Shown: one piece after another, positions 192 to 34,086 of the stretch
Numbering within the stretch: the first letter of the stretch is position 1
How the letters are laid out: every line of letters begins with the position of its first letter
Virus record (IMG/VR): IMGVR_UViG_3300031994_000321
Source: a virus
DNA: 34,344 bases
Reading direction: 5' to 3' (one strand)
Program-made: the position numbers and the translations under genes
Notes under the pieces: model-generated
The model's input: the letters and a program-made list of their open reading frames with translations, nothing else
The model's database searches: none
What the model was told of the DNA's origin: nothing

Positions 192-620
192 ATGGACTGG
201 ACGCAGATCATTACAGTATTTATCGGGACGAGCGGCGTGGCCGGAGTCCTGATTGCAATTGTGACTCTTGTCGAGCGCAAGAGTGCGCTGATGCTCGAGA
301 ATGCGCAGAAGCTCGCGGAGTCGTACCAGCAGCTCGCCAACGAGTATCAGCAGCTTGCCAATGAGTACCAGGAACGCGAGAGCAAGACGCAGGGGCTGCT
401 CGGGGAGAAGGATGCGGAACTGCTGAACCAGATCAAGATGAACTCCAGCCTCCGCCACAACCTCGACGACGCTCACACCGAGTGCGCCGTGGCCAAGCTG
501 ATGTACTGCAAGAAGGCGAAGTGCATAGAGCGAGACCCTCCCTTTGGCTCCGACGCAGGCAAGGTCCTGGCGGATATGAAACTTGACAACAAACGAAACT
601 ACACGCGCAAAGATGAGTAA
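192..620 (+). CDS. Lysis-cassette membrane protein: N-terminal TM helix plus coiled coil (i-spanin-like or holin accessory)
   Basis: ATG start. Hydrophobic segment IITVFIGTSGVAGVLIAIVTLV, then heptad-like QQLANEYQQLANEYQ, and Cys residues in the C-terminal part. The stop overlaps the endolysin start (ATGAGTAA). Confidence 0.6.
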   Translation: MDWTQIITVFIGTSGVAGVLIAIVTLVERKSALMLENAQKLAESYQQLANEYQQLANEYQERESKTQGLLGEKDAELLNQIKMNSSLRHNLDDAHTECAVAKLMYCKKAKCIERDPPFGSDAGKVLADMKLDNKRNYTRKDE

Positions 621-975
621 GTATTTCAAGGCGGCTGAGTTCACGCGGTGCAACCCCTCCTGCGACATCAGCCAGATGGACGCAGCTTTCCTGGATCTGA
701 TGGACCGGGTGCGCGAGCTGGCGGGCATCCCGCTCGTCATCAATTCTGCATACCGCTCCAAGAGCTGGGAGATGATGCACGGGCGCAACGGCACCAGCGC
801 CCATTGCAAGGGCAAGGCCCTCGACATCCGCTGCAACACTTCCGCCAACCGCTTCAGGATCGTGGCCGCCGCCATCAACGCAGGCATCAGGCGTATCGGC
901 ATCGGCAAGACCTTCGTACACCTCGACAATGACGGCACCCTCCCTCAGAGGGTAATGTGGGACTACTATGACTAA
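613..975 (+). CDS. Endolysin, peptidase M15 (D-Ala-D-Ala carboxypeptidase-like, M15_3/M15A type)
   Basis: Motifs FKAAEF, INSAYRS, SAHCKGKALDI and FVHLD give the H/D/H zinc-ligand pattern of M15 cell-wall peptidases. The internal ATG at 613 is preferred over the track start at 583 because it overlaps the upstream stop. Confidence 0.85.
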   Translation: MSKYFKAAEFTRCNPSCDISQMDAAFLDLMDRVRELAGIPLVINSAYRSKSWEMMHGRNGTSAHCKGKALDIRCNTSANRFRIVAAAINAGIRRIGIGKTFVHLDNDGTLPQRVMWDYYD

Positions 976-1417: not shown

Positions 1418-1599
1418 AAGACCTGATCAACATCTTCAAGCTGCTGGGCATTGCCGCCTGGCTGCTCGCCGCCATCGGCGGTGTAGGCTACTGCGCCTAT
1501 TTCGGCCATTACATCATCGCCGCCGCCGTTTTGTTCTTGGCGATCGTCTCCTACCCTACCGTGCTCACCTGGCTGCCGGGCAAGCCACCGGAGAAATAA
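1414..1599 (+). CDS. Small 2-TM membrane protein, holin candidate
   Basis: 61 aa from the internal ATG at 1414 (ATGA overlap with the upstream stop). Two hydrophobic helices (LLGIAAWLLAAIGGVGYCAYF and IIAAAVLFLAIVSY) and a charged C-terminus. Confidence 0.6.
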   Translation: MKDLINIFKLLGIAAWLLAAIGGVGYCAYFGHYIIAAAVLFLAIVSYPTVLTWLPGKPPEK

Positions 1600-1670
1600 T
1601 CCGGTTATTCCGAGGCATAAAAAAAGCCCTCGGTCTTATATGTAAAAGCACCACCTGATACATAAAGCGC

Positions 1671-1720
1671 CACTGCGCAAGGAGCCGAGGGCTGTAGAAG
1701 TCCACTTTCCTTGCGCAGTG
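1671..1720. terminator. Perfect 13-bp stem / 24-nt loop hairpin downstream of the lysis cassette
   Basis: cactgcgcaagga (1671-1683) is the exact reverse complement of tccttgcgcagtg (1708-1720). There is no strong T-tract on either side, so it could be a terminator or an RNA stability/regulatory element. Confidence 0.5.
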
Positions 1721-1786
1721 ACTGTTTAAGTTAGTATCAGATGGTGCACTGCAAAGGTAGTGATAAATTCTGATAATCAACGGCCT

Positions 1787-2116
1787 ATGCAGGAAAAAAT
1801 TTGCAAGAAAATAGTACTGGAATTTCTGGCGTTCCTCCGGTACAAGGTCAAGAACGATCTGCTGACGATGGAAGAGATAGAGTCGCTCGCCAGGATGTTT
1901 GAGGAGAACCTAACAGTCCTGGGAACCATCGACGACCTGGCCCGCTTCTACAACCAGCCGAAGTCAAACGTCTCAAATGTTATCAACCGGCGGATGATCG
2001 AGAAGCCCGTCCGCAAGCTGTTCTATTCCTTCAAGGCTTTCCGATCTGTCAAGCCGTCTTCCTGGGCTTATCATAAAAGCACTTCTCGTTCAAAGGGTTA
2101 CAATAAAGTTGATTGA
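1787..2116 (+). CDS. Small HTH DNA-binding protein (excisionase/HTH_17-like)
   Basis: The track start at 1760 is GTG and the first ATG is 1787. TIDDLARFYNQPKSNVSNVINRRMI looks like helix-turn-helix. The C-terminus is basic. Confidence 0.5.
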   Translation: MQEKICKKIVLEFLAFLRYKVKNDLLTMEEIESLARMFEENLTVLGTIDDLARFYNQPKSNVSNVINRRMIEKPVRKLFYSFKAFRSVKPSSWAYHKSTSRSKGYNKVD

Positions 2117-2200
2117 CGTTAGCAAGGCTATTTCATCTTGCCGAACTTCGTGATGTGACACAAGTCACCTCAGAAGTTTTACAATCAAATCTTAATCAAA

Positions 2201-2695
2201 ATGGCAGATGAAATGATGAAGGGGCTTTCCCCTTATGAGAGTATGAAGATTGCTCATATGGCTGCACGCAGGCCCTCGGGTGCGGCAGTCGCCGGCCTTG
2301 TTGTCGCCGGTGCCGCAGCAGTCGCCAGCGTCGGCGCCTGGATCTTCGGCCCCATTGTATCACAGAACAGGGCCAAGGGAATCGAAATGCTTATTGATTC
2401 CAACAACAAAAACACCCAGTCAACACTTGACCGTCTTATTGGAGCTCTTGCTTCGGAGCGTGCAGAGCGTGTGGCTCAGGGCGTGACTATGAGCCAGACT
2501 ATCAACGACACCGTAAGCGGAAGTCAGCAGGGGACACTTACTGCACAGCAGGCAGCAGAGCTTTCGGCGATGCAGAGTGTACAGAACAACCTTCTGAACC
2601 AGGCTATCCTGGGCAACCTGTCGGAGAATCCTCAGAAGGTGCAGATCTACTCGGCGCCCCAGCCCTGTGGCTGCCCGGGATCCTGCGGCAACTAA
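2201..2695 (+). CDS. Hypothetical membrane protein with Cys-rich C-terminus
   Basis: TM helix AAVAGLVVAGAAAVASVGAWIFGPIV, a Q/N/S-rich extramembrane part, ending PQPCGCPGSCGN. Followed by a strong terminator. Confidence 0.7.
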   Translation: MADEMMKGLSPYESMKIAHMAARRPSGAAVAGLVVAGAAAVASVGAWIFGPIVSQNRAKGIEMLIDSNNKNTQSTLDRLIGALASERAERVAQGVTMSQTINDTVSGSQQGTLTAQQAAELSAMQSVQNNLLNQAILGNLSENPQKVQIYSAPQPCGCPGSCGN

Positions 2696-2705
2696 CAGCT
2701 CACGT

Positions 2706-2737
2706 GGCAGGGTTGAGGCGACTCGCCCTGCCTTTTA
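2706..2737 (+). terminator. Rho-independent terminator
   Basis: ggcaggg (2706-2712) pairs with ccctgcc (2726-2732), with an inner gag/ctc extension. Followed by TTTTATT. Confidence 0.75.
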
Positions 2738-2747
2738 TTGAAAGACA

Positions 2748-3101
2748 ATGTCGCTACGCAAGAAAAGAGAGCAGAAGCTTATGGAACAGCTCGAATTGAT
2801 AAAACCCACAAGCAAGGCTGCACTCAAGCAGCAATGCCTGTTTTTGGCCAACCTTGACGTCGACAAGGCGGAAAGAATGTACGACTTCCTGATAAAGGAT
2901 ATGGACGATATACCAGCAGTCGAGGCCGCCTCAAAGACTTTTATCCAAAACGTAGGGGAGCAAGCCAATGGCCTCATCGGATGGCTGCGGGAGAACCAGG
3001 ACGTCATCAGCCAGGGCGTAGACTTCATCAAGGGCATCATCGCCGGAAGAAAGGGCGGGCAGCTGCCCTCGGCGGCTCCGCTGCCACCCATAAACAACTG
3101 A
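2748..3101 (+). CDS. Hypothetical protein (helical, soluble)
   Basis: ATG-initiated 117-aa ORF with protein-like composition, in a tightly packed + strand operon. No family recognised. Confidence 0.65.
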   Translation: MSLRKKREQKLMEQLELIKPTSKAALKQQCLFLANLDVDKAERMYDFLIKDMDDIPAVEAASKTFIQNVGEQANGLIGWLRENQDVISQGVDFIKGIIAGRKGGQLPSAAPLPPINN

Positions 3102-3105
3102 CGCT

Positions 3106-3294
3106 ATGGACGGGTATGAGATAAAGTTCAACGTCTTCGCCAACTCCCAGGAGGAGGCAGACCGCACTTCGCTGCTCATCCGCAAGTTCGTCGACGACTA
3201 CGCCAGAAAAGGCATAGCGGTCACGGCGGGCAAGATTGCCGCTGCAGTCACAAAGTACAAAGACAGCTTTTTATTGACAACATACTTCAAATAA
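3106..3294 (+). CDS. Hypothetical small protein
   Basis: 62-aa ATG ORF starting 4 nt after the previous stop. No family recognised. Confidence 0.55.
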   Translation: MDGYEIKFNVFANSQEEADRTSLLIRKFVDDYARKGIAVTAGKIAAAVTKYKDSFLLTTYFK

Positions 3295-3304
3295 TGATAA
3301 TAAT

Positions 3305-3538
3305 ATGGCCGAAAAGCAATGCACAGGCGACTGCCTCAAATGCTCGCTCCAGCAACAGGTCTATTGCGCCGCCCAGCACGGGCACGCCATAATGGGCTAT
3401 ATGCCCGTCCTGCTGGAGCGAATTGAGGCTTTGACAAGCGCCCTTTCGGGCTTTGCGCCCCAAGAGATTATCAACCCTCTGAAAGATAATGCACAGATAG
3501 ACTCCGGTGCAGAAAATAGGGAGCCTTCAACATCTTAA
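3305..3538 (+). CDS. Hypothetical small four-Cys protein
   Basis: 77 aa. The N-terminus CTGDCLKCSLQQQVYC has C-x3-C-x2-C-x7-C spacing. Confidence 0.6.
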   Translation: MAEKQCTGDCLKCSLQQQVYCAAQHGHAIMGYMPVLLERIEALTSALSGFAPQEIINPLKDNAQIDSGAENREPSTS

Positions 3539-3549
3539 TCTATCAGACT

Positions 3550-4035
3550 ATGGCTTGTTATAACGGACAGACTTTTGTCAATACTTGTATTCCAGCACCC
3601 GGCGCAACAGCCGCCGATGCCACCTATGTGGTAGACCTCACGCACTACCTTTGCGGCAACCGCAAGCTATGCGCCAACGGAGCATACCCGCTTGCTGCCG
3701 ACCTTAATTACAAAGTCCTCAATCCACCCCGTGCCGTAGGCAACGACACCTACCAGGTGGACATCCTCATCACCGGAGATATCACCTATATGCCGTACCG
3801 TAACGGTCAGTGCGGCTGCGATTGCAACTGCCCTCGCAGCGAGAATATATGGGCTACCGTCAGCGTGCCTTGGGGTTCCGCTGCGGCTCCTGCCGTGACT
3901 GCCGGCGAAGCCTTTGCTTCACCGACAAACCTGAAGGACTGCTGCTTCATCACAAACGCCTGCTCTATCGTAGGCTCCTTCAACCTCGCTACGGCTGCGG
4001 CAGCCTCGGCAAACGGCTCAAAGAGCTCCAAGTAA
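3550..4035 (+). CDS. Hypothetical cysteine-rich protein
   Basis: 161 aa with 11 Cys, including QCGCDCNC and DCC clusters. Beta-rich-looking sequence with an Ala/Ser-rich tail. Confidence 0.7.
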   Translation: MACYNGQTFVNTCIPAPGATAADATYVVDLTHYLCGNRKLCANGAYPLAADLNYKVLNPPRAVGNDTYQVDILITGDITYMPYRNGQCGCDCNCPRSENIWATVSVPWGSAAAPAVTAGEAFASPTNLKDCCFITNACSIVGSFNLATAAAASANGSKSSK

Positions 4036-4385
4036 TGTACCGGGAAGCTGCGGCGCTGACGACGGCCTGTGTGCTCTTCGTGCAGATGGGATTGGCTGAC
4101 GCCATACAGGCGAGGCTTCATTTCCGGTCCGTCCTCCTGTCCTGCCCAAAATGCTGCACCTTCTGGAGCGTGCTTCTGCTCTCGATGCTCCAGCGGCAAA
4201 GCCCGGTCCAATGTGTTGCAGCTTCCTTTATTTGTTCCTACGCCGCCCTGTGGCTCGCACTGCTGTACGACTGCCTGGCGACACTGTATAACAGAATCTA
4301 TGACAAGATCACCCAACAAACCGACACCGAAGACTCCGGTGGCGCCGATGACTCCGAAGCCGGCGCAGCCGATGCGGTGTCCTAA
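4035..4385 (+). CDS. Hypothetical multi-TM membrane protein with CPKCC motif and acidic tail
   Basis: The internal ATG at 4035 overlaps the upstream TAA (TAATG). Hydrophobic segments sit around ACVLFVQMGLA, TFWSVLLLSML and AASFICSYAALWLALLY. The tail is TDTEDSGGADDSEAGAAD. Confidence 0.6.
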   Translation: MYREAAALTTACVLFVQMGLADAIQARLHFRSVLLSCPKCCTFWSVLLLSMLQRQSPVQCVAASFICSYAALWLALLYDCLATLYNRIYDKITQQTDTEDSGGADDSEAGAADAVS

Positions 4386-4895
4386 ATGCAGATGAATATG
4401 ACACTTTATGAAATGACCAAGAAGTATGGCGAAGGGAAGGGAGAAGGCGTGATGTGGACCACCTTGCAGACCGTTTCCGATGCCATCGAAGACGCAATGG
4501 ACGAAGACGTGAAGAAGCGCCTGATGCGAAACCTCTACGGACAGATGGCTGGTGGCCATTACAACCAGGAGTTTGCTCAAGACGATGTTGCTAAAATGTA
4601 CTATAAGGAACAGAGCGGAGCGAAAATCGCAGCGCCATACTGGACCGAAGCCCAGGTCAAGGAAGTGTATGAGATAGTCAGAAAAGACATCTCGTCGCAA
4701 TATACCTTCTGGGACTTCTACGTCACCCTCCAGATGATCAAAAGCGACAATGTTCAGATGCTCAAAAAGTGGTATCCAGCAGCACCGCCGGAAGAACTTG
4801 ACAAGAAACTCGTCGAAATGGCCGTCAACTGGCTCAACGATCCTGACAACCCATACGGCGACCACAAGATCTGGGGATATATGTGCGCGAAATAA
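4386..4895 (+). CDS. Hypothetical protein (resembles a widespread uncharacterised phage/mobile-element family)
   Basis: ATG immediately follows the upstream TAA. 169 aa with motifs GGHYNQEFAQDDVAKMYY and FWDFYVTLQMIKSD. Function unknown. Confidence 0.7.
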   Translation: MQMNMTLYEMTKKYGEGKGEGVMWTTLQTVSDAIEDAMDEDVKKRLMRNLYGQMAGGHYNQEFAQDDVAKMYYKEQSGAKIAAPYWTEAQVKEVYEIVRKDISSQYTFWDFYVTLQMIKSDNVQMLKKWYPAAPPEELDKKLVEMAVNWLNDPDNPYGDHKIWGYMCAK

Positions 4896-4896
4896 A

Positions 4897-4925
4897 CAGC
4901 AAACCATTTTGCTGATGTCAGCAAA
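4897..4925 (+). terminator. Hairpin cluster after the cargo operon
   Basis: cagcaaa (4897-4903) / tttgctg (4908-4914) / cagcaaa (4919-4925) can form alternative 7-9 bp stems directly after the stop codon. Confidence 0.5.
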
Positions 4926-4975
4926 ATTGTTACATTTGTACCAATACAATCTAATACATTGTATGGCTTAAGGGT

Positions 4976-5006
4976 AGAGCTGGAGGTGCAAGCTTCCAGC
5001 TCTTTT
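4976..5006 (+). terminator. Rho-independent terminator
   Basis: agagctgga (4976-4984) pairs with tccagctct (4995-5003), followed by TTT. Confidence 0.7.
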
Positions 5007-5032
5007 CAAAGCCAAAACGAAAAACTTGCAGA

Positions 5033-5060
5033 TTTTGTCCTATTGTTGTCCGATAAAATT
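5033..5060 (+). repeat. Direct repeat A1 upstream of int (candidate integrase arm-type site)
   Basis: ttttgtcctattgttgtccgataaaatt. It differs from the copy at 5216-5242 by one substitution (t/a after tcctat) and by one extra T in the 3' A-rich tail. Confidence 0.6.
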
Positions 5061-5215
5061 GAAAATGCAAGAGTGGCCTTGTAAAACGCGGATATTACTT
5101 TTTCGATAGAGAAAGTTAACAACCCCCTCATAGATTAGAAAAAAGCCCTTCAGAACGCTTGTAGGGCATATTTAAAAACCTATTGTCACTTAAAGTGCCG
5201 ATAGGTTTTTGCTTT

Positions 5216-5242
5216 TTTTGTCCTATAGTTGTCCGAAAAATT
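5216..5242 (+). repeat. Direct repeat A2 upstream of int (candidate integrase arm-type site)
   Basis: ttttgtcctatagttgtccgaaaaatt. A third TTGTCCTA half-copy lies at 5249-5256. Confidence 0.6.
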
Positions 5243-5243
5243 A

Positions 5244-5251
5244 TATCTTTG
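5244..5251 (+). promoter_or_regulatory. Bacteroidota-type -7 promoter box (TAnnTTTG) for int
   Basis: tatctttg matches TAnnTTTG and lies 20 nt upstream of the ATG at 5271. Confidence 0.5.
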
Positions 5252-5270
5252 TCCTACCCAAGAGCCATCA

Positions 5271-6533
5271 ATGATCACCTTCAAACCCATAGTCATCCAG
5301 GGCGGCAGACGAAAGGACGGGACGTGGCCCGTCAAAATCCGCGTCACCTTCAAGGGGCAAAGTCGCCGACTGCCCACAACTCTGATGTGTGTGGATGCAG
5401 ACCTGACGCGCTCGGGCAAGATCAAGAATGCAAACGTACTGGAGAAAGCCGCAGAACTTATCACCAGGATGAGGGCAAGCTGCAACCAGCTCTCGCCATT
5501 TGTGGTGGAGGCGTGGACGGTGGACGACGTGGTGCGATGGATACGCAAGGACTTGACTGCGGAGCAATGGAGGCTCGACTTCTTTCAATTCGCTGACGAA
5601 TACATCGACAGCAAGAAGGAAAGCACCCGTGCCGTATATCTTTCAGCCCTCCGCACCTTTGAGACCTTCCTCGGCAAGAGGTATGTCGATGTCAACGAGA
5701 TCACCCGCCAGATGCTTTTGGACTTCCTGGACTTCGTAGATGCAAGGCCGGTGATGCACCGCAGCAAAACCGGAACCCTTGTTGAGACGCAACGCGAGAA
5801 AGTGTCGCACGGCGTATCACGGGAATATCTCTCAAAACTATCCCACATCTACGGCAAGGCGAAATTCCGGTACAATGATGAGGACAGCGGTATCATCCGC
5901 ATACCCCGTAATCCCTTCGCAGGGCTGACGGGAAAAGAATACCCTCACAATGGTCAGCCGAGCCTCGGCGTTGAGGTGATGCAGAAGATTATAGATTGGG
6001 AGCCGCAGGACTGGATCGAGGAGATAGCGCAGGCGGCATTCCTTTTCTCGTTCGGCACGATGGGGGCAAACCTTACTGACATGCGGAGCCAGGTAGATCC
6101 TCCAACGGACGGAATATGGGTCTACAATCGACGCAAGACTGCCGACAGACGCGTCGACCGTGCCGAGGTAAGGGTTCGCATCCCTGAACAGATATCGCCT
6201 TTTGTAGCGAAACTGCGTGGCCCGCAGGGGCGATCGGGAAAGTGGCTCGGAGCCCTGCAAAGATGGAGCCGTGACAATTCGGCAACGCTGATGATAAACA
6301 TGGCCCTGCGGAGGTGGGCGGAACGCGAAGGCATCAAACCCTTCACCTTCTATGCGGCACGACATACCTGGGCAACATTGGCGCGAAGCGCGGGAGTCGA
6401 GAAGGCTACCGTTGACGAAGCATTGGCTCACATCGGTGACTACCGCATTGCGGATATATACGCGGAGCGCAACTGGTCTCTCGCCTGGGCAGCGAATGAC
6501 AAGGTGATGGCACTATTCAGATGGCCTTTGTGA
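5271..6533 (+). CDS. int: Tyrosine recombinase / phage integrase (Bacteroides type)
   Basis: The N-terminus MITFKPIVIQGGRRKDGTWPVKIRVTFKG is the typical arm-binding domain start. The C-terminal box is ARHTWATLA...LAHIGDYRIADIYAE (R-H...H...Y). The start is moved from the track's 5229 to the ATG at 5271. Confidence 0.9.
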   Translation: MITFKPIVIQGGRRKDGTWPVKIRVTFKGQSRRLPTTLMCVDADLTRSGKIKNANVLEKAAELITRMRASCNQLSPFVVEAWTVDDVVRWIRKDLTAEQWRLDFFQFADEYIDSKKESTRAVYLSALRTFETFLGKRYVDVNEITRQMLLDFLDFVDARPVMHRSKTGTLVETQREKVSHGVSREYLSKLSHIYGKAKFRYNDEDSGIIRIPRNPFAGLTGKEYPHNGQPSLGVEVMQKIIDWEPQDWIEEIAQAAFLFSFGTMGANLTDMRSQVDPPTDGIWVYNRRKTADRRVDRAEVRVRIPEQISPFVAKLRGPQGRSGKWLGALQRWSRDNSATLMINMALRRWAEREGIKPFTFYAARHTWATLARSAGVEKATVDEALAHIGDYRIADIYAERNWSLAWAANDKVMALFRWPL

Positions 6534-12745: not shown

Positions 12746-12961
12746 ATGGAAATAGAAGGCATCCTTACTGGCATGATAAATTGCAAAGAGCCTATAACTG
12801 AAAGGCCGCTCCATTATCTCACAGTGGCCGTTCCGTGTTTTCAGGACGACTATCACCAAGTCGGCTACACATCATTCGACATACCCATTATTAGCGGCGA
12901 AATTCTGGCGGATCTACGACTCGGAGATAAAGTGAAAATAACGATTGAACCAATCAGATAA
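12746..12961 (+). CDS. Hypothetical small beta-rich protein
   Basis: 71 aa, 3 nt after the SPFH-like gene. The C-terminus is IPIISGEILADLRLGDKVKITIEPI. Confidence 0.5.
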   Translation: MEIEGILTGMINCKEPITERPLHYLTVAVPCFQDDYHQVGYTSFDIPIISGEILADLRLGDKVKITIEPIR

Positions 12962-13767
12962 TGACTATGGCTACCAAGAAACCCACAACAAAGAAGGCTC
13001 CGGCAAAGAAGCCGCAGCCTGTCAAGGATGACCGCATCCTTGTGGTCATTCCGTACCTCGCAAAGGCCGCTCAGGGCCGCGAAATTGCATACGCCGTCGA
13101 AGGATGGCGCAGGCACTTCAAGGAGCCGCACCACATCGTCATCGTCGGCGATGATCCGGGAATCCAGGGAGATGACATCACCTTCCTGCCCTGCCCCCGG
13201 GTTGAGGCAATCAAGGGGCAGTACCAGTGCCATATCGACCACGTAAAAAAGTTCCGCAAAGTGCGTGAGGCCTTCCCTGACAGCAAGGGTTTTATCTACA
13301 GCTGCGACGACATCTATGCAGTCAACGACTTCACCTTGGTTGAGGTGATGTTTCCGAAGATCACCGAGGACGTGATGACTTGCAGCCCGGACCACCCCAA
13401 TGCCTGGCGGCGGGATCTCTACAAGACACTCGAGCTGTGCAAGAAAAACGGACTGCCCCTGCGAAACTGGGTCTGCCACCTTCCCGTCTGGTATGAATGG
13501 GACAAGTTGCTTGCCATCTATGACAAGTACGATTGCGACCATATCAGCTATGTCATCGAGAACATCTACTTCAACACCTACGAGGCCACAAGGGTGCCTC
13601 TGATGATCAACATCAGGCACGACAACCTTCGCTGTGCTGTCTATCGGGCCAATCCGGACTGGACGATCGTAGAGGCTGCTTTTAACAACAAGATCTGGAT
13701 CAACAACAGCATTGAGGGATGGACCCCTCAACTTGATAAAAAGCTATCCGAATACTATGAAATTTAG
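12961..13767 (+). CDS. Nucleotide-sugar transferase-like protein (GT-A / Stealth-like), with a K/P/A-rich basic N-terminal tail
   Basis: ILVVIPY...GREIAYAVEGWRRHF...HIVIVGDD, FIYSCDDIYAVNDF (DXD-like) and WVCHLPVWYEW resemble the Stealth/GT conserved regions. The N-terminus is ATKKPTTKKAPAKKPQPVK. The family call rests on motifs only. Confidence 0.45.
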   Translation: MTMATKKPTTKKAPAKKPQPVKDDRILVVIPYLAKAAQGREIAYAVEGWRRHFKEPHHIVIVGDDPGIQGDDITFLPCPRVEAIKGQYQCHIDHVKKFRKVREAFPDSKGFIYSCDDIYAVNDFTLVEVMFPKITEDVMTCSPDHPNAWRRDLYKTLELCKKNGLPLRNWVCHLPVWYEWDKLLAIYDKYDCDHISYVIENIYFNTYEATRVPLMINIRHDNLRCAVYRANPDWTIVEAAFNNKIWINNSIEGWTPQLDKKLSEYYEI

Positions 13768-16654: not shown

Positions 16655-17153
16655 ACCGAAACAGCCGCAGCAGCTGCTTGAATTGAAGGGCACGGCGAGG
16701 AAAACACGCCGCCGAATCGAAGCTATGGTCGGAATGAAGATCACGAACTTCGACCAGGTGGCTGCGCTCTGTGACTATACCCATCTGACCGATCAGGGGC
16801 AGCGCATATTTATCCGGCAATGCACCTTCTTGATCGGGATGAATGCGCTCCAGGCGCAGGATCTACAGCTGCTGCTGATATATGCTCAGAACTATGACAT
16901 CGCGTTGAGGTGTATGGAAGAAATCAACAGCGGAAAGGCGTGGTTCACACTCACCAAGAATAAGCGCGGGGAGATCGTCGCAATTCACGAATTTCCATAT
17001 CTACGTCTATTCCGCAAAGCCTGCACAATTGTCAACTCAATCGGGGGCAAGTTCGGGTTCTCACCCGCAGACCGCATCCGTATGGCGGAGCCTGCAGCCC
17101 AGAAAGAGAAGACTGACATCATGGATATATCAGCTGATGCCATTGAGATATGA
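16647..17153 (+). CDS. terS: Terminase small subunit (P27 family-like)
   Basis: The N-terminus is MGRPKQPQQLLELKGTARK and the C-terminus is GKFGFSPADRIRM, both typical of P27-family TerS. Located upstream of terL. Confidence 0.75.
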   Translation: MGRPKQPQQLLELKGTARKTRRRIEAMVGMKITNFDQVAALCDYTHLTDQGQRIFIRQCTFLIGMNALQAQDLQLLLIYAQNYDIALRCMEEINSGKAWFTLTKNKRGEIVAIHEFPYLRLFRKACTIVNSIGGKFGFSPADRIRMAEPAAQKEKTDIMDISADAIEI

Positions 17154-18838
17154 AACTTGATTACAGACAACGGATAGCCGACTATATCGATGCGGTGCAG
17201 ACGGGCCGAAGGGTTGCCGGGCACTATGAGGTGGCGGCAGTGGAGAGGCAGCTGCGTGACTTGCGGCGCCAGCGCACCGATGACTTCCCCTATTACTGGG
17301 ATGAAGCAGAGGCTATCCGTCGCTGTAACTTTTTCGCCAAGCTCCGCCACTGCAAAGGTGAATACGCAGGGAGGCCCATCATCCTCGAGGGCTGGCAGGC
17401 GTTCATAGTGGCCGTCATCTTCGGCTGGAAGCGCGTCGATAACAACTACAGGCGTTTTCTCCGTGCGGACGTCGAGACGGCCCGCAAGAATGGCAAGACC
17501 ACCCTCGCCTCCGGCATCGGCATCGAAATGATGTCGCAGGTAGAAAACGAGCCAGGTGCGGAGGTCTATGCCGCTGCCGTGGACCGCAATCAGGCCAAGC
17601 TCTGCTGGGACGGCGCGAAGCAGATCATTCAGAGCTCCACCGCACTGTCGGAGATCTTCAAATGTTACCAGTTCAGCATCGTTGATATGAGGATGGCTTC
17701 ATCCTTCAAGCCCCTGAGCAAGGACACGAAAAACAAGGATGGTCTCAATCCCTCCTGCGGCATCTGCGACGAGCGTCACGCCTGGAAAAGTAACGACATC
17801 TATGAGCTGCTTCGTACCGGCATGGGCTCGCGCAGACAGCCTCTGCTGTTCAGCATTACCACTGCCGGCTTAGATAAGAGCCTTCCGTATTTCGATGATT
17901 TGCAAAGGATGAAGGCTATCCTGGACGGCAACATCAGAGACGATCAGCAGTTCGTCATGATCTTTGAGCCGGACAAGGACGATGATTGGAAGGACGAGCG
18001 CACTTGGTATAAGGCAAATCCCAACCTGGGTGTGTCTTTCAGCATCGACTATCTCCGCAGCGAGTTTGAGGATGCAGTCCGCAAAGGTGGAGTCCGCGAG
18101 GTGCATTTCAAGACAAAAAACCTCAATATGTGGGTCGATGCTCCGGAGGTGTGGATTAACGAGGACAAAGTCAAGGCCTGCAACTACGGAACCGATGATG
18201 CGGCCCTGCTCGGTCAGGAGTGCTATGGCGGTCTCGACTTTGCGTCCCATGTCGATATAATTGCGTTTGAACTCTACTTCCCCACCTTGCCGCATAAGCC
18301 TGTCAAGAGTTACTACTGGATACCGGAGGCAAAGGTGGAGCAGGGCACAGATCTCGTGGATTATCGTGCCTGGAAAGAACAGGGCTGGATCAAGACCACT
18401 GAGGGAGAGGTGATAGACATTGACTATCTTGTCGCCGACATTCTGGCGATCTGCAAACAGTACAACGTCAAGAACATTGCCTTTGACCCTTACAAGGCGT
18501 ATCACGGCCTCATTCAGGGTCTACAGGCGGGAGGTCTCGACAGCATCCTTTCCGAATTTTCGCAGGGCATCAAGAATATGAGCGAGCCTACTAAGGAGCT
18601 TGAACGCCTCGTCACGGCTGGCGAGATAGATCTGATGGGCAACCCGATACTGCAATGGATGTTCCGCAATGTTACTCCTTACTACGACCCGAACGATAAT
18701 ATCAAGTTGTTTAAGGGGAAGGCCAGGAACAAGATAGACGGTGTCATCGCCCTCGTCAACGCCGTCGGCGGCTATATGGCCGAAATGGTCAATCACAAAC
18801 CGATATATCAGACGCACACGTTACGGATACTGCCATGA
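17150..18838 (+). CDS. terL: Terminase large subunit
   Basis: 562 aa with a Walker A-like ARKNGKTT. Length and order (terS-terL-portal) are typical. ATGA overlap with terS. Confidence 0.9.
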   Translation: MKLDYRQRIADYIDAVQTGRRVAGHYEVAAVERQLRDLRRQRTDDFPYYWDEAEAIRRCNFFAKLRHCKGEYAGRPIILEGWQAFIVAVIFGWKRVDNNYRRFLRADVETARKNGKTTLASGIGIEMMSQVENEPGAEVYAAAVDRNQAKLCWDGAKQIIQSSTALSEIFKCYQFSIVDMRMASSFKPLSKDTKNKDGLNPSCGICDERHAWKSNDIYELLRTGMGSRRQPLLFSITTAGLDKSLPYFDDLQRMKAILDGNIRDDQQFVMIFEPDKDDDWKDERTWYKANPNLGVSFSIDYLRSEFEDAVRKGGVREVHFKTKNLNMWVDAPEVWINEDKVKACNYGTDDAALLGQECYGGLDFASHVDIIAFELYFPTLPHKPVKSYYWIPEAKVEQGTDLVDYRAWKEQGWIKTTEGEVIDIDYLVADILAICKQYNVKNIAFDPYKAYHGLIQGLQAGGLDSILSEFSQGIKNMSEPTKELERLVTAGEIDLMGNPILQWMFRNVTPYYDPNDNIKLFKGKARNKIDGVIALVNAVGGYMAEMVNHKPIYQTHTLRILP

Positions 18839-19242: not shown

Positions 19243-20451
19243 ATGGGACTTTTTGACATTTTCAGAAGAAAGAAACCGGATCAAAGGGCCGTACTCCACG
19301 GAACGGAGGAGTCATACAGGCGCTTCCGTGAGCCGCTGTCCGACTTTGGACTGACCGTCAGCAACGATGCAGCCCTCAAGATGACTGCCTACTATGCCGG
19401 AATCCGTCTGATCTCAGAAAATATAGCTGCACTCCCCAAGCGCATCTATCGCAACGAGAAAAACGGAGACCTCTCCCCCGTCGACAATGCAGTGAGCCGG
19501 GCCGTCGGTGTCCGTCCCAACGCTTATACAAATTCCTTCGACTTCTGGTTCACGATGGTGGCCTGGCTCCTTAACCGGGGCAACGCCTACGCCCTGATCC
19601 GGTGGGACCAGGAAACCGGAGAGGTAGAGCTGCACCAAGTCTTCCCGGACTACGTTACTCCAGTCATTGTCAAAGGTCACAAGTGGTTTCATGTGGCACT
19701 GCCGACAACCGACAGCCGCACGTTTCTCAATGGCGACTATCCGGACTATCGGATGCTGCACTTTATGCAGTTCACGATGGACGGCGTCTCGGGGCTCAAC
19801 CCGGTCCTCTACAATGCCATCGCCCTGAGCAAGGGCGCGGCAATGGAGCGTTTTATTGCAAGATTCTTCAAGGCCGGCGGCGACAAGCGGGCCGTGCTGG
19901 AGATGGACGGTCAGATGGGCGATGAAGCTTACAATAAATTCCTGGCCCGCTACAACGAAACCGGCTCCGGGGGCACACCCCTCCTGGAATACGGCATCAA
20001 GTTCAAGCAGGTCAACGTAGATCCCGTAACAGCAGCCCTCATCGAAAGCGAGACATTTAGTATCGACGATATAGCGCGGATGCTCAACATCCCTCCCCAC
20101 ATGTTGGCGGAGCTCACACACGCCACCTTCAGCAACATCGAGCATCAGACAATCCAGTTCGTGCAGTACACCCTTCGTCCGCTGGTCAAGCGCATGGAGG
20201 TCGAGCTGGAGGGTAAGATGTTCTACTTCCCCGGACACAGCGTCAAGTTCGTTCTGGAAGGCCTCCTGCGAGGCGACACTCAGGCGCGGTCGCAGTTCTA
20301 TCACGGTGCAATCCTCGACGGCTGGATGAGCCGGAACGAGGTCCGCAAGATGGAGGGTCTCCCGAAGGCGGAAGGACTTGACGATTACCTCTACCCCACC
20401 AACGAGATGAAGGTAGGAGATGAACCGAATAACACACAATCACAGCAATGA
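19243..20451 (+). CDS. Portal protein (HK97 family)
   Basis: 402 aa, in the position after the terminase. The sequence pattern is typical of Phage_portal (LLNRGNAYALI..., FFKAGGDKRAVLE). Confidence 0.85.
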   Translation: MGLFDIFRRKKPDQRAVLHGTEESYRRFREPLSDFGLTVSNDAALKMTAYYAGIRLISENIAALPKRIYRNEKNGDLSPVDNAVSRAVGVRPNAYTNSFDFWFTMVAWLLNRGNAYALIRWDQETGEVELHQVFPDYVTPVIVKGHKWFHVALPTTDSRTFLNGDYPDYRMLHFMQFTMDGVSGLNPVLYNAIALSKGAAMERFIARFFKAGGDKRAVLEMDGQMGDEAYNKFLARYNETGSGGTPLLEYGIKFKQVNVDPVTAALIESETFSIDDIARMLNIPPHMLAELTHATFSNIEHQTIQFVQYTLRPLVKRMEVELEGKMFYFPGHSVKFVLEGLLRGDTQARSQFYHGAILDGWMSRNEVRKMEGLPKAEGLDDYLYPTNEMKVGDEPNNTQSQQ

Positions 20452-21124: not shown

Positions 21125-22297
21125 ATGAGAACAATTGTACAGATTCTCACAGACCTCAGAGCCAATGTAGAGGCTATGAAGTCTTGTGCCACCACTGACA
21201 CCGACGGCATGGCCGCTCTGATGGCAAAGGACAAGGCACTGAAAGAAGAACTCGCCGCTGCACGCGCAGCCGAGGAAGCTGAACGCCTGCTTGTAGCGCA
21301 GGAAGTACGGAAAGAGGCTAAGAAGGGCAACCGCTTCAGCCTTGCAAGATTTATCGCAGGAGTTGCCGACCGCCATCTCGAAGGTCTCGAGGCCGAGGTT
21401 GCCGAGGCCGGTGCCGCAGAGTACCGCCGCATCGGTCTCAGCCAGAAGGGTAAGGTCATCCCGTCAGCACTGCTCAGGGACGTTCACGGCCAGAACTTCG
21501 CCGATGATGATGAGGGTGGATACCTCGGAATCACAACCCTCCGTTATATCGAGGACGTGAAGGAAAGGCTTGTCGTCGCCGGTATGGGCGCTACCGTCCT
21601 TCCCGGTCTTGTCGGCCAGGTAAGCCTTCCCTCAATGGGCAGCGTTACTGCCACCTTCCTGGACGAAGGAGTCGCTTCGCAGACGAAAGTCGCTGATGTG
21701 GCAAACGTGGTCCTCACCCCGCGTGGCATTCGTGCCAGCATGGTAACGACACGTGACCTCCTCAAGCAGACAACCGTTGCCGTCGACCGCATCCTTGAAC
21801 AGCGCCTTGCAGATGCAGCCGCTGCTTGCCTCGACAAGGAAGCTCTTGCAGCCATCGTTACTGCCGCGACAGCTGCCGGCAGCTCTGTCACCTGGGCAAA
21901 CATAGTGGCGATGGAAACCGCCATCAATGCCGCCAACGCGAACCGTGGCAGCATGGGCTATGTCTTCACCGCCAACACCTGGGGCGCAGCCAAGACCACC
22001 CTCAAGAGCGCGGGAGTTGGCGGCTACCTCCTTGACATCGACGGAAAGGTCAACGGATACAAAGCTGATTTCAGCAACCAGCTGGCCAGCGCCGATGCAA
22101 TCTTCGGAAACTTCCAGGATCTCTATATCGGTCAGTGGGGCGGCATCGACTTCGTCGTAGATGAGGTCACCCTCGGCGACACCGGCGAGATCAAGGTCCT
22201 CCTGTTCAACTACGCCGACGCGAAAGTTGCCTTTGCCAAGAGCTTCAGCAAGATTGCAGCATCTGGCTCAGGCAGCGGCGACGGGCAGAGCGCTTAA
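21125..22297 (+). CDS. Major capsid protein (HK97 fold) with an N-terminal delta/scaffold-like coiled coil
   Basis: 390 aa. The N-terminal roughly 100 aa form a charged coiled coil. The C-terminal part contains GNFQDLYIGQWGGIDFVVDE, typical of HK97-family capsids. Confidence 0.9.
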   Translation: MRTIVQILTDLRANVEAMKSCATTDTDGMAALMAKDKALKEELAAARAAEEAERLLVAQEVRKEAKKGNRFSLARFIAGVADRHLEGLEAEVAEAGAAEYRRIGLSQKGKVIPSALLRDVHGQNFADDDEGGYLGITTLRYIEDVKERLVVAGMGATVLPGLVGQVSLPSMGSVTATFLDEGVASQTKVADVANVVLTPRGIRASMVTTRDLLKQTTVAVDRILEQRLADAAAACLDKEALAAIVTAATAAGSSVTWANIVAMETAINAANANRGSMGYVFTANTWGAAKTTLKSAGVGGYLLDIDGKVNGYKADFSNQLASADAIFGNFQDLYIGQWGGIDFVVDEVTLGDTGEIKVLLFNYADAKVAFAKSFSKIAASGSGSGDGQSA

Positions 22298-30849: not shown

Positions 30850-33800
30850 ATGGAAGATCTGAAACCCATAAGGCGGCAGACGACAACGACTCTACTTGCC
30901 ACACTCACCGATAACGGAGTGAAGACTGACTGGCGCGATTTCAGCGTGATCCGTGCCTACATATATGCCCTGGATCAGCAGATGGTGTCCGGCCCCTGCT
31001 CGGTTGAGGTAGACAGCTCGGACGAGACCGTCCTTCGCTGCGTCTATGATGCCGGCAAGCCGCAATATCTCGGTCCGCAGAAACTCGTCATCTACTGCGA
31101 ATATCAAGGACAGAAGAACACCTACGACAAGCTGGCGTTCCGCTATGTCGCATCAACCGACGAGACCCTCAATGACGGCACGACGATCGCCGCCGACACC
31201 ACAGACGTATATATCACCGTCGAAGACGTTTCCACCTCCATTCTTTCCGGCGCTATAGCAGCAGCGCTGGATGCAGCTGAATTTGCCAACCGCACCGGCG
31301 AGGATGTCCAGGAGAGGGCGGACCAGGACCATACAAGAGCCGGGCAAGACCACACTCGCGCCGGAGAGGACCATACGCAAGCCGGGCAGGATCACACCCG
31401 AGCTGAGGAAGACCATACGCAGGCCGGGCAGGACCATACCCGAGCCGGGCAGGACCATACCCGAGCTGAGGAAGACCATACGCAGGCCGGTCAAGATCAC
31501 ACTCGAGCTGAGGAAGACCACACTCGCGCCGGAGAGGACCATACGCAAGCCGGGCAGGATCACACCCGAGCTGAGGACGATCATACGCAGGCCGCCAGCG
31601 ACCATACGCAGGCCGCAAACGACCACACCACCGCAGCGGCGGATCACGAAAAGGTTCAGCAATATGTAATAGATGCCGTTGATGTCAGTTTAGATAACGA
31701 AGAAGGAATCCCTTCGGGAACAGGATCGATATCCGGTGGCGTACTTTCCCTTAATTTTCATAATTTGAAGGGAGCAACAGGCGCAACAGGCGCAACAGGC
31801 GCAACAGGCCCACAAGGGCCGCAGGGAAACACGGGATCGAGCGTGGACTACCCCTTTGAAATCGTCAACAACCTTACCACGAATGACGCGACAAAGGCGT
31901 TGTCGGCGGCTATGGGTAAAAAAATCTACGACGATATTCTCACCGGCCCTAAAATAACGGCGCAAGAGAACGCAGGCACGGCTTCATCGTATTGGTATAA
32001 CAATAATGGCACGATAGGATATGGGGCATCGGGAATGGGATTGCACCGCGCCGATTATATCCCAGTCAATGTGGGCGACGCAGTAAGTCTTAATGTAGGC
32101 ATAGGCAGCGCAACGGTAGCGGTGGCATTTTTCTGCAATGATGCAGGCACAATAATCAGCACTATCGCCAAAACGGGCGGCAATACGCAATGGTCTGGCG
32201 GTGTTCCTGCGGGAGCGACACGGATATACATCAACTACCTCACGGGCTATACTTTTACAGTGCCCTCAACAATCGCCAAAATCAATGAGGCGTTGAGTGG
32301 ATTGGACGATGATTTGGAAACTCTCGACGACCAAGTCAATGGATATACCTCGACAACCACGGAGGCTGACGTTACCGCACCTTCTGGGGCTTGGGACAAT
32401 AGCGACGGCGTTGTCACGGCTATATCAAACGGCGTGCTTCACCGTGTCCCCGCAATAGATTTAAGCGGAGTAAAATCATTCAGCCTTACCACTACTCTTA
32501 GTTGGTCAATGGCTGCTGCCGGCTTCCTGTGCGATGATTTCGGCAACATCATAGAAACGATAAGCAGAACTGGGGAAACCACAACGGTTACGGATAAGGC
32601 AGTCCCCGCAGGAGCGACAAAGTTATACATCAACTACGCATCGGCATTCACTTATGCAGGATATTACCCCGGCATAGAAGAAAAAATCGAGGATGAGATT
32701 GAAAACCGCCTTAGTATAGATATAGAACTTCCCATTCTTGCTCCCTCGCCTCAACTCCCCGCAAATGGCGAGACCATATCCGACATCAATGCAGAAACGA
32801 TGACCTCGCAGAGCATACAATCGGCTATCGAGTCTATCATCGACAAACTGCCCACCCCCAACAAGAACTCATACCCCAACAATCCTCGTTACGGGACGGT
32901 ATATGAAACCATTGGCCGCGACGCATCCAATCAGTATGACATCAAGGCTTATGTGTTTACCAAAAGAAACCGTTTTTGTTGGCGAAGCGGCGCAGCCCTG
33001 TATGCGTGGGTAAATGGCAGCACTACATATTACACCGACCATCGTTCACCGATCGTTGGCGACGCGGTGTATAATAGTTCGTCCCGTGCATCTTCGGGAT
33101 ATGTTGTTACGTCGTATGATTCTTCCACTCCGGCTATATCGGTAAACGGGACGGCCTACACAAGAGACGATACCAAGAATGTGGCCGCAGATGAAATCTA
33201 TACCCAGTTAGAACTTGGAAGCACGACCGCGACAATATCATCATATTACAAGGACGGGAGTTGGGCGGGAACGGCCACCGTTGCTTCAGCCACGACACTC
33301 ACCCTGTCGGGGAAAACATATACCCGTTATCCGTCAAGAGACTTTCACACAGGCAACAAGGCGACCATTGCTTTGTGGGCCAACGAACACGGGCCGCAGA
33401 GCGATCCAAACGATGCAAGCGTTATTCTTTACCGCCTTGTTAAAGACTTGTGCCGTGGATGCAATGACAATCCCTTCCTTACATACCTTCGAGGCTATTG
33501 CAAGGTAGTGATTATTCCTGCTGCTAATCCGTGGGGAGTGAATATATACCAATCTGGTGGGTATGGCCGCAACAATGCCAACGGCGTGAACATTAACCGC
33601 AACTTCGACACCATCGGATGGGCCGCACAATCCGACACCAATAAAGGCAGTTATGCGGGCGACCAACCCGAAACGCAGTTTATTATGAATGCCGTCTTGG
33701 ATATGGAAGCAGACATCGCCATAGATGTCCATTGTCTCGGATATGTCACGCAGGCGAATGAGGGACGCTCACACTATGAGGGCGCAGTATCGGAATTGAA

Positions 33801-34086
33801 TGGTAAGGTAGCGAGCGTGATGACTGGCTATTGCGGTCTCTCATATACCTCTTATGGAGACGCAAGCCCCTCGACATCGGCGACGGGTGCTGATTGGTTG
33901 TACTCTCTCGGCATCGCGGGCGGTCTCATAGAGATGAATTCAGGGCCGTATGCTTCGTCGTTCAATGGCAAGCAACATTCCGACGTAATAATGTTTGCAA
34001 ATTACACCTTGCTGCTGAATACGTTGAGAATGTGGTATTATCAATATGACGACACCCTCGATTTATCGCGGATGAGCATCAAATAA
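30850..34086 (+). CDS. Tail fibre: N-terminal domain, DHTxAxx heptad array, collagen-like GXY, two tandem beta domains and a C-terminal M14 carboxypeptidase-like domain
   Basis: The track start at 30832 is TTG and the first ATG is 30850. M14 motifs are IIPAANPWG, GVNINRNF, YAGDQPETQF, IDVHCLG and GADWLY...LIEMN. The expected HxxE Zn motif reads EHGPQ. Confidence 0.8.
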   Translation: MEDLKPIRRQTTTTLLATLTDNGVKTDWRDFSVIRAYIYALDQQMVSGPCSVEVDSSDETVLRCVYDAGKPQYLGPQKLVIYCEYQGQKNTYDKLAFRYVASTDETLNDGTTIAADTTDVYITVEDVSTSILSGAIAAALDAAEFANRTGEDVQERADQDHTRAGQDHTRAGEDHTQAGQDHTRAEEDHTQAGQDHTRAGQDHTRAEEDHTQAGQDHTRAEEDHTRAGEDHTQAGQDHTRAEDDHTQAASDHTQAANDHTTAAADHEKVQQYVIDAVDVSLDNEEGIPSGTGSISGGVLSLNFHNLKGATGATGATGATGPQGPQGNTGSSVDYPFEIVNNLTTNDATKALSAAMGKKIYDDILTGPKITAQENAGTASSYWYNNNGTIGYGASGMGLHRADYIPVNVGDAVSLNVGIGSATVAVAFFCNDAGTIISTIAKTGGNTQWSGGVPAGATRIYINYLTGYTFTVPSTIAKINEALSGLDDDLETLDDQVNGYTSTTTEADVTAPSGAWDNSDGVVTAISNGVLHRVPAIDLSGVKSFSLTTTLSWSMAAAGFLCDDFGNIIETISRTGETTTVTDKAVPAGATKLYINYASAFTYAGYYPGIEEKIEDEIENRLSIDIELPILAPSPQLPANGETISDINAETMTSQSIQSAIESIIDKLPTPNKNSYPNNPRYGTVYETIGRDASNQYDIKAYVFTKRNRFCWRSGAALYAWVNGSTTYYTDHRSPIVGDAVYNSSSRASSGYVVTSYDSSTPAISVNGTAYTRDDTKNVAADEIYTQLELGSTTATISSYYKDGSWAGTATVASATTLTLSGKTYTRYPSRDFHTGNKATIALWANEHGPQSDPNDASVILYRLVKDLCRGCNDNPFLTYLRGYCKVVIIPAANPWGVNIYQSGGYGRNNANGVNINRNFDTIGWAAQSDTNKGSYAGDQPETQFIMNAVLDMEADIAIDVHCLGYVTQANEGRSHYEGAVSELNGKVASVMTGYCGLSYTSYGDASPSTSATGADWLYSLGIAGGLIEMNSGPYASSFNGKQHSDVIMFANYTLLLNTLRMWYYQYDDTLDLSRMSIK
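31327..31653 (+). repeat. 21-bp tandem repeat array (15 full units plus 1 partial) encoding DHT(R/Q)A(G/E)(Q/E) heptads
   Basis: Units start every 21 nt from 31327 to 31642. A 63-bp higher-order block (31348-31410) recurs at 31516-31578. Confidence 0.95.
31771..31842 (+). repeat. Collagen-like G-X-Y stretch (8 triplets) with 9-bp DNA repeats
   Basis: GAT GAT GAT GAT GPQ GPQ GNT GSS, with ggcgcaaca repeated at the DNA level. Confidence 0.9.

Follow-up and report, generated by a model that had tools for sequence, protein, structure and literature searches.

A co-inherited seven-gene cassette of small cysteine-rich and membrane proteins in phages of Bacteroidales, crAss-like phages included

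The IMG/VR virus record IMGVR_UViG_3300031994_000321, a DNA of 34,344 nucleotides (nt) analysed over its whole length and referred to here as the window, carries a block of seven small genes on the + strand, which we designate g1 to g7 (2201-2695 through 4386-4895). The block lies between a Peptidase_M15 endolysin gene at the left end of the window (583-975) and a tyrosine integrase gene downstream (5229-6533). An initial annotation, prepared from the letters of the window alone, had delineated the same seven open reading frames (ORFs) in the same place between lysis genes and integrase, and had considered them its best candidate for an undescribed system. The block is one co-inherited, mobile accessory cassette, and not a stack of independent additions: g1 to g6 are collinear in 22 out of 22 related loci as far as the contigs extend, with identities descending to about 25-35%, and these loci span about ten phage backbones. 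The hosts of the cassette phages are Prevotella and other Bacteroidales of gut and rumen. Neither the proteins nor the architecture match a described system, and the suspicion of novelty thus stands, while the cassette turns out to be something beyond mere "prophage cargo", namely a widespread seven-gene module of Bacteroidales phages, those of the crAss-like group included. In the human and animal gut, the phages of Bacteroidales, crAss-like ones included, count among the most abundant viruses, and the majority of their genes lack an assigned role. A cassette kept intact while being exchanged between phages that differ in virion and life style must be generally advantageous on these hosts.

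The relatives considered here are labelled L001 to L022 (the cassette loci), together with L030 and L035; L010 is Bacteroides phage BS162P1. They were gathered by a g5 scan of viral contigs, from rumen Prevotella/Bacteroidales metagenome-assembled genomes, and by homologue look-ups on long contigs. The g5 scan yielded nine loci, in which the order of g1 to g6 is kept wherever the contig extends, down to approximately 30-48% identity. Gene co-occurrence in related phages, which the initial annotation had proposed as a check, is therefore borne out by the conserved order in all 22 loci. The gene following g6 encodes a DUF7841 protein in the window, L002-L007, L009-L012 and L018-L022. At the nucleotide level, a set of 50,697 phage records searched with blastn contained no match to the block; tblastn with g5 and g2 matched BS162P1 only, and g6 of BS162P1 used as query matched only itself. 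A protein identical to that of g7 is encoded on a public contig of 34,785 bp. BS162P1 (OP172706.1, 88.9 kb, infecting Bacteroides salyersiae BSC162, with the cassette at 65.7-68.4 kb) is the only cultured carrier found, and makes the question of function directly testable.

The genomic position of the cassette varies, being next to lysis genes in about six of the ten backbones and in early, replication or DNA-modification regions elsewhere. In L018 and L020 it stands behind a D5-type primase gene, among oppositely oriented early genes, in L008 too it occupies an early or replication region, and in BS162P1 the cassette, DUF7841 gene included, follows QueC and radical-SAM genes and precedes a Tad2-like gene. 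L011 and L012 are bona fide crAss-like contigs, as neighbouring genes match Pfam Crass_capsid, CrAss_Ring_1/2/3_4, crAss_AuxCP, THA and THB; in L009, a contig of 99.9 kb, the crAss tail-hub matches are weak. The window and the crAss-like L011 encode g5 and g1 proteins 72% and 58% identical, respectively, and share a single further gene (window 12961-13767); horizontal exchange of the cassette is deduced from this close likeness in phages having so little else in common. That further gene (+ strand) encodes a protein of 268 amino acids (aa) with no Pfam or PHROG match, 51% identical to the product of a gene situated between crAss_AuxCP and crAss_THA in the crAss-like contigs (L011:16930-17673, L012:13175-13948). 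Other peculiarities were noticed around the cassettes. An HNH/NUMOD4 homing endonuclease gene occupies the gap between g1 and g2 in L002 (4449-5084, - strand) and also in L006. The QueC-like and radical-SAM (QueE-like) genes of BS162P1 (L010 1078-1806 and 4373-5092) suggest a 7-deazaguanine DNA modification, as read from sequence, and L010 14897-15523 encodes a protein joining a crAss001_48-related domain to a Tad2-like anti-Thoeris domain.

The ratio of nonsynonymous to synonymous substitution rates (dN/dS) against homologues is 0.04-0.27 across g1 to g7, from which all seven are regarded as real genes under purifying selection. From g2 to g7 the gaps are of 11 nt or less, or the genes overlap; the stop/start junctions pointed out by the initial annotation (a TAATG overlap at 4035 and TAA-ATG at 4385/4386) exist, and g2 to g7 are probably translationally coupled. 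The guanine plus cytosine (G+C) content of the cassette, 0.52-0.55, is inside the window range of 0.44-0.59. The earlier estimate of about 25 cysteines (Cys) in four of the proteins is exact: g1, g4, g5 and g6 together hold 25 in 518 residues (4.8%), when the remaining 38 + strand ORFs of the window average 1.18% (binomial p=6e-9). Conservation of these Cys had been suggested as a further check, and the motifs are indeed conserved among the homologues of all four. On the - strand, an ORF of 380 codons (3807-4949), unusually long at about 52% G+C, runs over the end of g5, g6 and g7; it is taken as a by-product because the + strand has the DUF7841 match and the higher conservation.

The g1 protein (2201..2695, 164 aa, + strand like the other six) is predicted to be a bitopic membrane protein. 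Its N-terminus is conserved (SPYE...RRPSG); a transmembrane helix rich in Gly and Ala spans approximately residues 28-46, an invariant ERxER stands in a region rich in Q, S and N, and the protein ends in a tri-/tetra-cysteine tail (PQPCGCPGSCGN). Members of its family almost always have three or four Cys in this tail, mostly three (e.g., PCGCPGCG), and hardly any elsewhere. The family is large, with more than 2129 clusters at 90% identity, yet it is represented by 112 sequences at 50% identity among 1.84 billion proteins; dN/dS of g1 is 0.17-0.21. An ejection protein similar to gp52 of phage N4 (PDB 8vxq) was considered as a relative, given a borderline hmmsearch value (E=0.067) with a plausible-looking alignment, and was rejected because hhalign against a seven-member gp52 profile returned a probability of 0.2% (E=0.31). 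In a protein of 256 aa, P0373, the first half of g1 continues in frame into the second half of a DUF7841 protein; it is either a natural deletion of g2 to g6 or an assembly chimera.

Three small proteins follow. The g2 protein (2748..3101, 117 aa) is soluble and probably helical, with an invariant TSK..LK motif, a conserved C-terminal PLPPIN(G) and a dN/dS of 0.05; its PDB profile match to nairovirus nucleoproteins (E=1.6e-4 over 67 residues) was judged to be chance, as there is no shared biology and no independent confirmation. The g3 protein (3106..3294) has 62 aa, 62-68 aa in the family, no Cys, a conserved G.AV(T/S)A.K motif and a dN/dS of 0.04. The acidic g4 protein (3305..3538, 77 aa, with CTGDCLKCSLQQQVYC) bears an N-terminal C-x3-C-x2-C-x7-C motif, whose four Cys are invariant in nine divergent homologues, BS162P1 among them. 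Ferredoxins are characterized by CxxCxxCxxxCP, and radical-SAM proteins by CxxxCxxC within their fold. Neither g4 nor g5 has a Pfam match, and their motif spacings differ from that of ferredoxins; they do not qualify as iron-sulfur (Fe-S) proteins of the ferredoxin or radical-SAM type.

The g5 protein (3550..4035, 161 aa) contains 11 Cys, with the QCGCDCNC and DCC motifs already highlighted by the initial annotation; C35, C41, C94 and C131 are invariant, and the loop 81-95 (QCGCDCNCP, i.e., C-x-C-x-C-x-C-P) is Cys-rich. Its AlphaFold2 model, with a predicted local distance difference test (pLDDT) value of 82.4, depicts an all-beta protein with eight long strands. Foldseek of this model against PDB and BFVD gave no match at E<=0.001, with template-modelling (TM) scores not above 0.28. 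The top rows, discarded as relatives, are beta structures of OmpA, gasdermin and secretin, with TM scores of 0.17-0.28 and a root-mean-square deviation above 15 Å for most; what the model has in common with them is long antiparallel strands and not the fold. Since it has no signal peptide, g5 is not taken as an outer-membrane barrel. The gene for g6 (4035..4385, 116 aa) starts within the stop of g5 at the TAATG overlap. The two to three hydrophobic segments, the CPKCC motif and the acidic, charged tail previously described for this small membrane protein are all present, and an invariant C-x-K-C-x-x-F-W at the membrane edge provides its single invariant Cys pair (C37, C40). Membrane thiol oxidoreductases of the DsbB/VKOR type possess at least four helices, and their two essential Cys pairs are in extracytoplasmic loops. 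These features are lacking in g6, where only one invariant Cys pair and no more than two to three hydrophobic segments are present, with no Pfam match.

The last gene, g7 (4386..4895, 169 aa), had been left without an assignable family, which is not the case: its product is an all-alpha protein of Pfam DUF7841 (PF25223), matching at E=3.5e-19 and 69.6 bits (cut-off 25.2) over profile positions 2-113 of 114. The genes at the position of g7 in L007, L009, BS162P1, L011/L012 and L018-L022 likewise encode full-length DUF7841 members. DUF7841 is a family without known function, and in the literature library searched no paper was found on it or on BS162P1. The AlphaFold2 model of g7 (pLDDT 95.3) found no fold neighbour in PDB by Foldseek (best match E=1.5), so that fold comparison, proposed at the outset as a check, revealed no neighbour for either g5 or g7; both models are apparently new folds. 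The g7 family comprises 603 clusters and that of g5 181, and neither these nor those of g1 are named.

The earlier statement that the block has no recognisable family remains correct for g1 to g6 (nothing significant in Pfam, PHROGs, NCBIfam and PADLOC, and no credible match in PDB profile searches, where g3 to g7 gave nothing below E 0.01), and gives way for g7 only. It was also right that no enzymatic, virion or defence domain is detectable with Pfam, PHROGs, PADLOC and NCBIfam. In particular, g1 and g6 have no match at E<=1 to the holin models of Pfam and PHROG; the sequences of g2 to g7 show no signal peptide or lipobox; the cassette proteins have no significant match to PHROG structural families; and Pfam Crass_capsid, CrAss_Ring, THA/THB and AuxCP match neither the cassette genes of L011/L012 nor anything in the window. 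The function may be of a known kind (exclusion, lysis control) carried out by new proteins.

The expression signals of the cassette have also been maintained. A weak hairpin annotated at 2122-2141 is no better than shuffled sequence (-7.0 kcal/mol, z=-1.5); the conserved element near it is a GAACTTCG box (2143..2150, +), a promoter-like element of the Bacteroides -7 type. GAACTT(T/C)G is invariant in nine aligned upstream regions, 56-81 nt before the ATG of g1; the window, L001-L004, L006, L010, L013 and L018-L020 carry it, and it is replaced by the canonical TAnnTTTG in L007, L009 and L011. For the primary sigma factor of Bacteroides, TAnnTTTG is given as the -7 consensus (PMC7366714). A stem-loop (2151..2172, +) would open the g1 transcript; one can form directly after the box in nine of nine loci (-7 to -21.5 kcal/mol), its sequence differing by lineage, with changes that preserve base pairs between L002 and L003. 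Between g1 and g2 stands a predicted intrinsic terminator or attenuator (2706..2739, +), consisting of a hairpin (2706-2732) plus TTTTATT; it corresponds to the strong terminator of the initial annotation (-20.2 kcal/mol, z=-3.2). A GC-rich, usually T-tailed hairpin of -19 to -29 kcal/mol occurs after g1 in eight of eight divergent loci, its position being kept and its sequence not. The self-contained look of g1, noted earlier, is supported: it resembles a unit of promoter, gene and terminator, with the box at 2143-2150 and the terminator at 2706-2739 as predicted elements whose positions persist across loci. Two terminator hairpins, also foreseen, would close the operon (4906..5007, +), each followed by a T-rich run: 4906-4927 (-12.1 kcal/mol, z=-3.7) and 4972-5007 with TTTTC (-22.3 kcal/mol, z=-4.8). 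Rfam on 1500-5400 returned only sub-threshold chance matches.

Directly upstream of the cassette is a gene for a small helix-turn-helix (HTH) protein, g0 (1760..2116, +; probable ATG at 1787, 109 aa). Its homologues are immediately 5' of g1 in L001-L004, L006 and L013; the same slot holds sequence-similar small proteins in L018 and L019, a gene of equal size in L020, a protein of 96 aa in L010 whose HTH matches are weak, and a different, excisionase-like HTH protein in L011, L021 and L022 (with an HTH_17 match in L011 only). The g0 gene is also found without the cassette, in L030 and L035. L030 has no detectable g1, with little sequence beyond g0, and L035, a relative of the lysis region of the window, has g0 followed by an unrelated Gly/Q-rich protein of 321 aa (L035:3270-4235). 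Because L035 has another gene there, the slot after g0 is variable, as expected of an accessory slot. The 321-aa protein has a hydrophobic part resembling a Gly zipper, a coil rich in Q and N that contains its Cys cluster, QLCQCCCE, and a C-terminus rich in Gly and aromatic residues. It was examined as a possible homologue of g1 and dismissed (hhalign probability 0.15%). Just before the HTH gene, membrane proteins of 120-132 aa with several hydrophobic segments and a common R(F/L)C motif are encoded in L011 (7870-8262), L021 (8255-8617), L022 (8230-8607) and L035 (2466-2864), and may be holins or members of the module.

Regarding its surroundings, the window is an almost complete tailed-phage genome of HK97 type, with TerL (17150-18838), a portal (19243-20451) and an HK97-type major head protein (21125-22297). 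A tail protein of 1078 aa (30850-34086) matches a tape-measure PHROG and also a PHROG of zinc carboxypeptidases (E=3.6e-10), and may thus include a domain that cuts peptidoglycan. The left end of the window encodes, besides the endolysin, small membrane proteins with at least two transmembrane helices and a spanin-like protein (968-1417, +) that combines a lipobox with a C-terminal transmembrane helix. Proteins of this kind (N-terminal lipobox MASSC, LLCGC or LSGC) are also encoded in L021 (11945-12445, -) and L035 (1687-2223); they adjoin endolysin genes in the window and L021, lie just downstream of an amidase gene in L035, and have no family match. Judging from their predicted features, the three display a unimolecular-spanin architecture.

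Tentatively, and at somewhat less than an even chance, we read the cassette as an independently transcribed accessory module encoding a thiolate-linked membrane complex, most likely devoted to exclusion or to the control of the envelope and lysis. Under this scheme, the box just 3' of g0, resembling a host-type promoter of sigma-ABfr, would drive the cassette; the g1 transcript would start with a stabilising stem-loop, and the terminator after g1 would let part of the transcription through into g2 to g7. In this way, g1 would be a discrete, stable and abundant transcript giving an abundant subunit, with g2 to g7 made at lower, matched levels. The g1 protein would cross the membrane once, with its Q/N-rich part outside the cytoplasm and its C-terminal CGCxxC as a thiolate tail; its putative partners would be g6 as the second membrane protein (CxxC), the Cys4 mini-protein g4, the Cys-rich beta protein g5, the soluble g2 and g3, and the DUF7841 protein g7. 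The products of g1 to g7 would form a complex at the cytoplasmic membrane, joined or made functional by metal-thiolate sites or intermolecular disulfides, and acting on the envelope of the infected or lysogenic cell, either by excluding rival phages or by otherwise reshaping or governing the envelope at about the moment of lysis. The gene content and its conservation, the movement between unrelated phages, the expression signals and the lack of known families or folds are established; the assembly of a complex, its metal or disulfide chemistry and its biological role are what we infer. An even-number test for disulfides revealed no bias in the Cys counts, and this result, along with the mostly three-Cys tail of g1, favours metal sites or links between subunits over purely internal disulfides. 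An accessory envelope module is preferred because virion, classical lysis and dedicated redox-enzyme roles are each argued against, as follows.

Lysis itself is the most serious of these other roles. The cassette might be a lysis-control or envelope-disruption module, where g1, with the topology of a class III holin or i-spanin, would time or complete lysis in Bacteroidales together with g6 and the soluble partners, after the manner of the lysis-inhibition set T/RI/RIII of T4. We consider it unlikely, and keep it alive because of the recurrent lysis-gene neighbourhood: in several backbones the cassette comes directly after or inside the lysis cluster. Besides the window and L001, and likewise L022, where it is beside lysis genes, it is found by Amidase_2-DUF6808 genes in L011/L012, by holin-Amidase_3-DUF6808 genes in L019 and 4.7 kb from an amidase gene in L009, whereas L007 and L021 have holin_4_1 upstream and a convergent GH108 endolysin plus a spanin-like gene downstream. 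Some of these lysis-side carriers are crAss-like contigs with no integrase in the stretches examined, to which the rule of morons at attR should not apply. Nonetheless, no recognised lysis genes are near the cassette in L018/L020, L008, L002 and BS162P1, and the window already has its endolysin, the spanin-like lipoprotein at 968-1417 and small membrane proteins with at least two transmembrane helices. The helix of g1 at 28-46, preceded by RRPSG, can be compared with an i-spanin layout, and the only family signal in that direction is a weak match to an Rz-like spanin (PHROG 1026, E=0.15); there is no significant match to a holin or spanin family, and since g2 to g7 have no lipobox, g1 lacks an o-spanin partner. 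A virion role, where the Cys-rich proteins would be minor structural parts, disulfide-locked like those of the crAss001 tail, and g1 and g6 ejected proteins inserting into membranes, is in our opinion improbable. Disulfides do stabilise the crAss001 virion (PMC10172136), the cassette of L009 lies between tail-fibre-like genes and that of L002 after a portal gene, the expression signals of g1 are like those of abundant late proteins, and g1 gave the borderline value to the gp52-like 8vxq. However, this last lead vanished in the profile-profile comparison, cassette genes have no significant PHROG structural or Pfam crAss virion match, and proteins 58-72% identical occur in crAss-like and HK97-type phages with otherwise unrelated virions. 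The early or replication-region position in L018/L020 and BS162P1 is unfit for structural genes; variable position, own host-type promoter and carriers with unrelated virions altogether disfavour it.

A module for metal handling, Fe-S or thiol redox, in which g6 would act as a membrane thiol oxidoreductase on g4, g5 and the g1 tail, or these would carry the metal, is given a similarly low probability; such a module might, for example, oxidize phage proteins in a host without DsbA/DsbB. The enrichment in Cys and the conserved CxxC, C-x3-C-x2-C and CGCxxC motifs speak for it, and the g1 tail would be the mirror image of the CxxCGC nickel site of HypB. Its redox-enzyme version is weakened because g6, with one conserved Cys pair and two to three hydrophobic segments, is unlike DsbB/VKOR; furthermore, there is no Pfam match to thioredoxin, DsbB, VKOR, ferredoxin or Mer families, the spacings differ from CxxCxxCxxxCP of ferredoxins, and the block has no recognisable enzyme. 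Ordinary lysogenic-conversion morons, i.e., independent cargo that a prophage would express to its host's advantage, are in turn very improbable. In their favour, the window, L005 and L013 have the block placed with lysis genes on one side and attP/int on the other, and promoter-like and terminator elements flank g1. Against them, the full ordered set is present in phages with no integrase in view, crAss-like contigs and BS162P1 among them; g2 to g7 are tightly packed and probably translationally coupled, and the G+C content is not atypical. The distribution has already largely refuted this explanation, and the temperate-phage moron framing of the initial annotation is too narrow for a cassette that recurs in the same order in the crAss-like L011/L012 and in BS162P1.

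Several considerations weigh against the accessory envelope module as well. No homology or experiment ties any cassette protein to exclusion, lysis or metal binding, and PADLOC-DB v2 returned no defence model, the best values (E 0.028 and 0.037) falling on g0 and g1 and none on g2 to g7. Seven conserved genes exceed what known superinfection-exclusion systems need, and a direct role in lysis could instead explain why the cassette so often neighbours endolysin, holin and spanin genes. The Cys-rich parts may sit on opposite sides of the membrane, because g5 and g4 have no signal peptide, and such an arrangement would be ill-suited to a single shared metal site; the promoter and terminator, for their part, are predictions from sequence alone. 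A more specific possibility, to which we assign a probability of about one third, is a new kind of phage envelope machine particular to Bacteroidales: a metal-thiolate- or disulfide-bonded complex of two membrane and four to five soluble proteins, two of these with new folds, which spreads as one unit among crAss-like and other tailed phages and would control the entry of rivals or the integrity of the envelope in a manner unlike described exclusion, lysis or defence systems. If exclusion or lysis control were its role, the cassette would represent a new mechanism in the conflict between gut phages and between phage and host; if thiol or metal chemistry were, no such module would have been known before from the phages of anaerobic hosts. 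In either case, six of its seven proteins are outside described families, and the two confidently modelled ones (g5 and g7) have no structural neighbour.

The closest known systems are analogies of position or topology, not of homology, and every test for membership at the family level failed except that of DUF7841 for g7. Morons are found at the lysis-attR end of temperate phages, such as bor and lom of lambda, those of HK97-type phages, or the toxin genes of streptococcal and staphylococcal prophages. As with them, the block of the window is between a lysis cassette and an attachment site, g1 has its own promoter-like box and terminator, and what follows g0 can be another gene in a related phage (L035); unlike them, the cassette is a fixed set of seven genes instead of single genes, is sometimes located in early regions, and has no atypical G+C. 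The lysis and lysis-inhibition set of T4 (holin T, antiholin RI and RIII) and the two-component spanins Rz/Rz1 of lambda provide a second comparison. Like T and Rz, g1 would start on the inner side, cross the membrane with a single helix, expose a large domain outside and bear terminal Cys, and like the T4 set it is accompanied by several small soluble or membrane partners, often beside endolysin, holin and spanin genes. The cassette differs in having no sequence or profile similarity to these proteins and no lipoprotein partner, in not always being near lysis genes, and in that its phages already have spanin-like and holin-like genes. The membrane proteins of superinfection exclusion (Imm and Sp of T4, SieA of P22, lactococcal Sie2009 or gp15 of HK97) consist of one or two proteins per known system, are not known to be Cys-rich and have no homology to the cassette. 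The resemblance would be that of small phage proteins of the inner membrane, independently transcribed, accessory and horizontally exchanged, in both temperate and virulent phages. Poxviruses, finally, possess a cytoplasmic disulfide pathway (E10R/A2.5L/G4L). In Bacteroidales phages, the virion proteins of crAss001 are stabilised by disulfides (PMC10172136). The cassette proteins have neither a Pfam crAss virion match nor a thioredoxin or Erv fold nor an oxidase; their likeness to both cases would lie in virus-encoded proteins with functional Cys, and crAss001 already places thiol chemistry within the biology of Bacteroidales phages.

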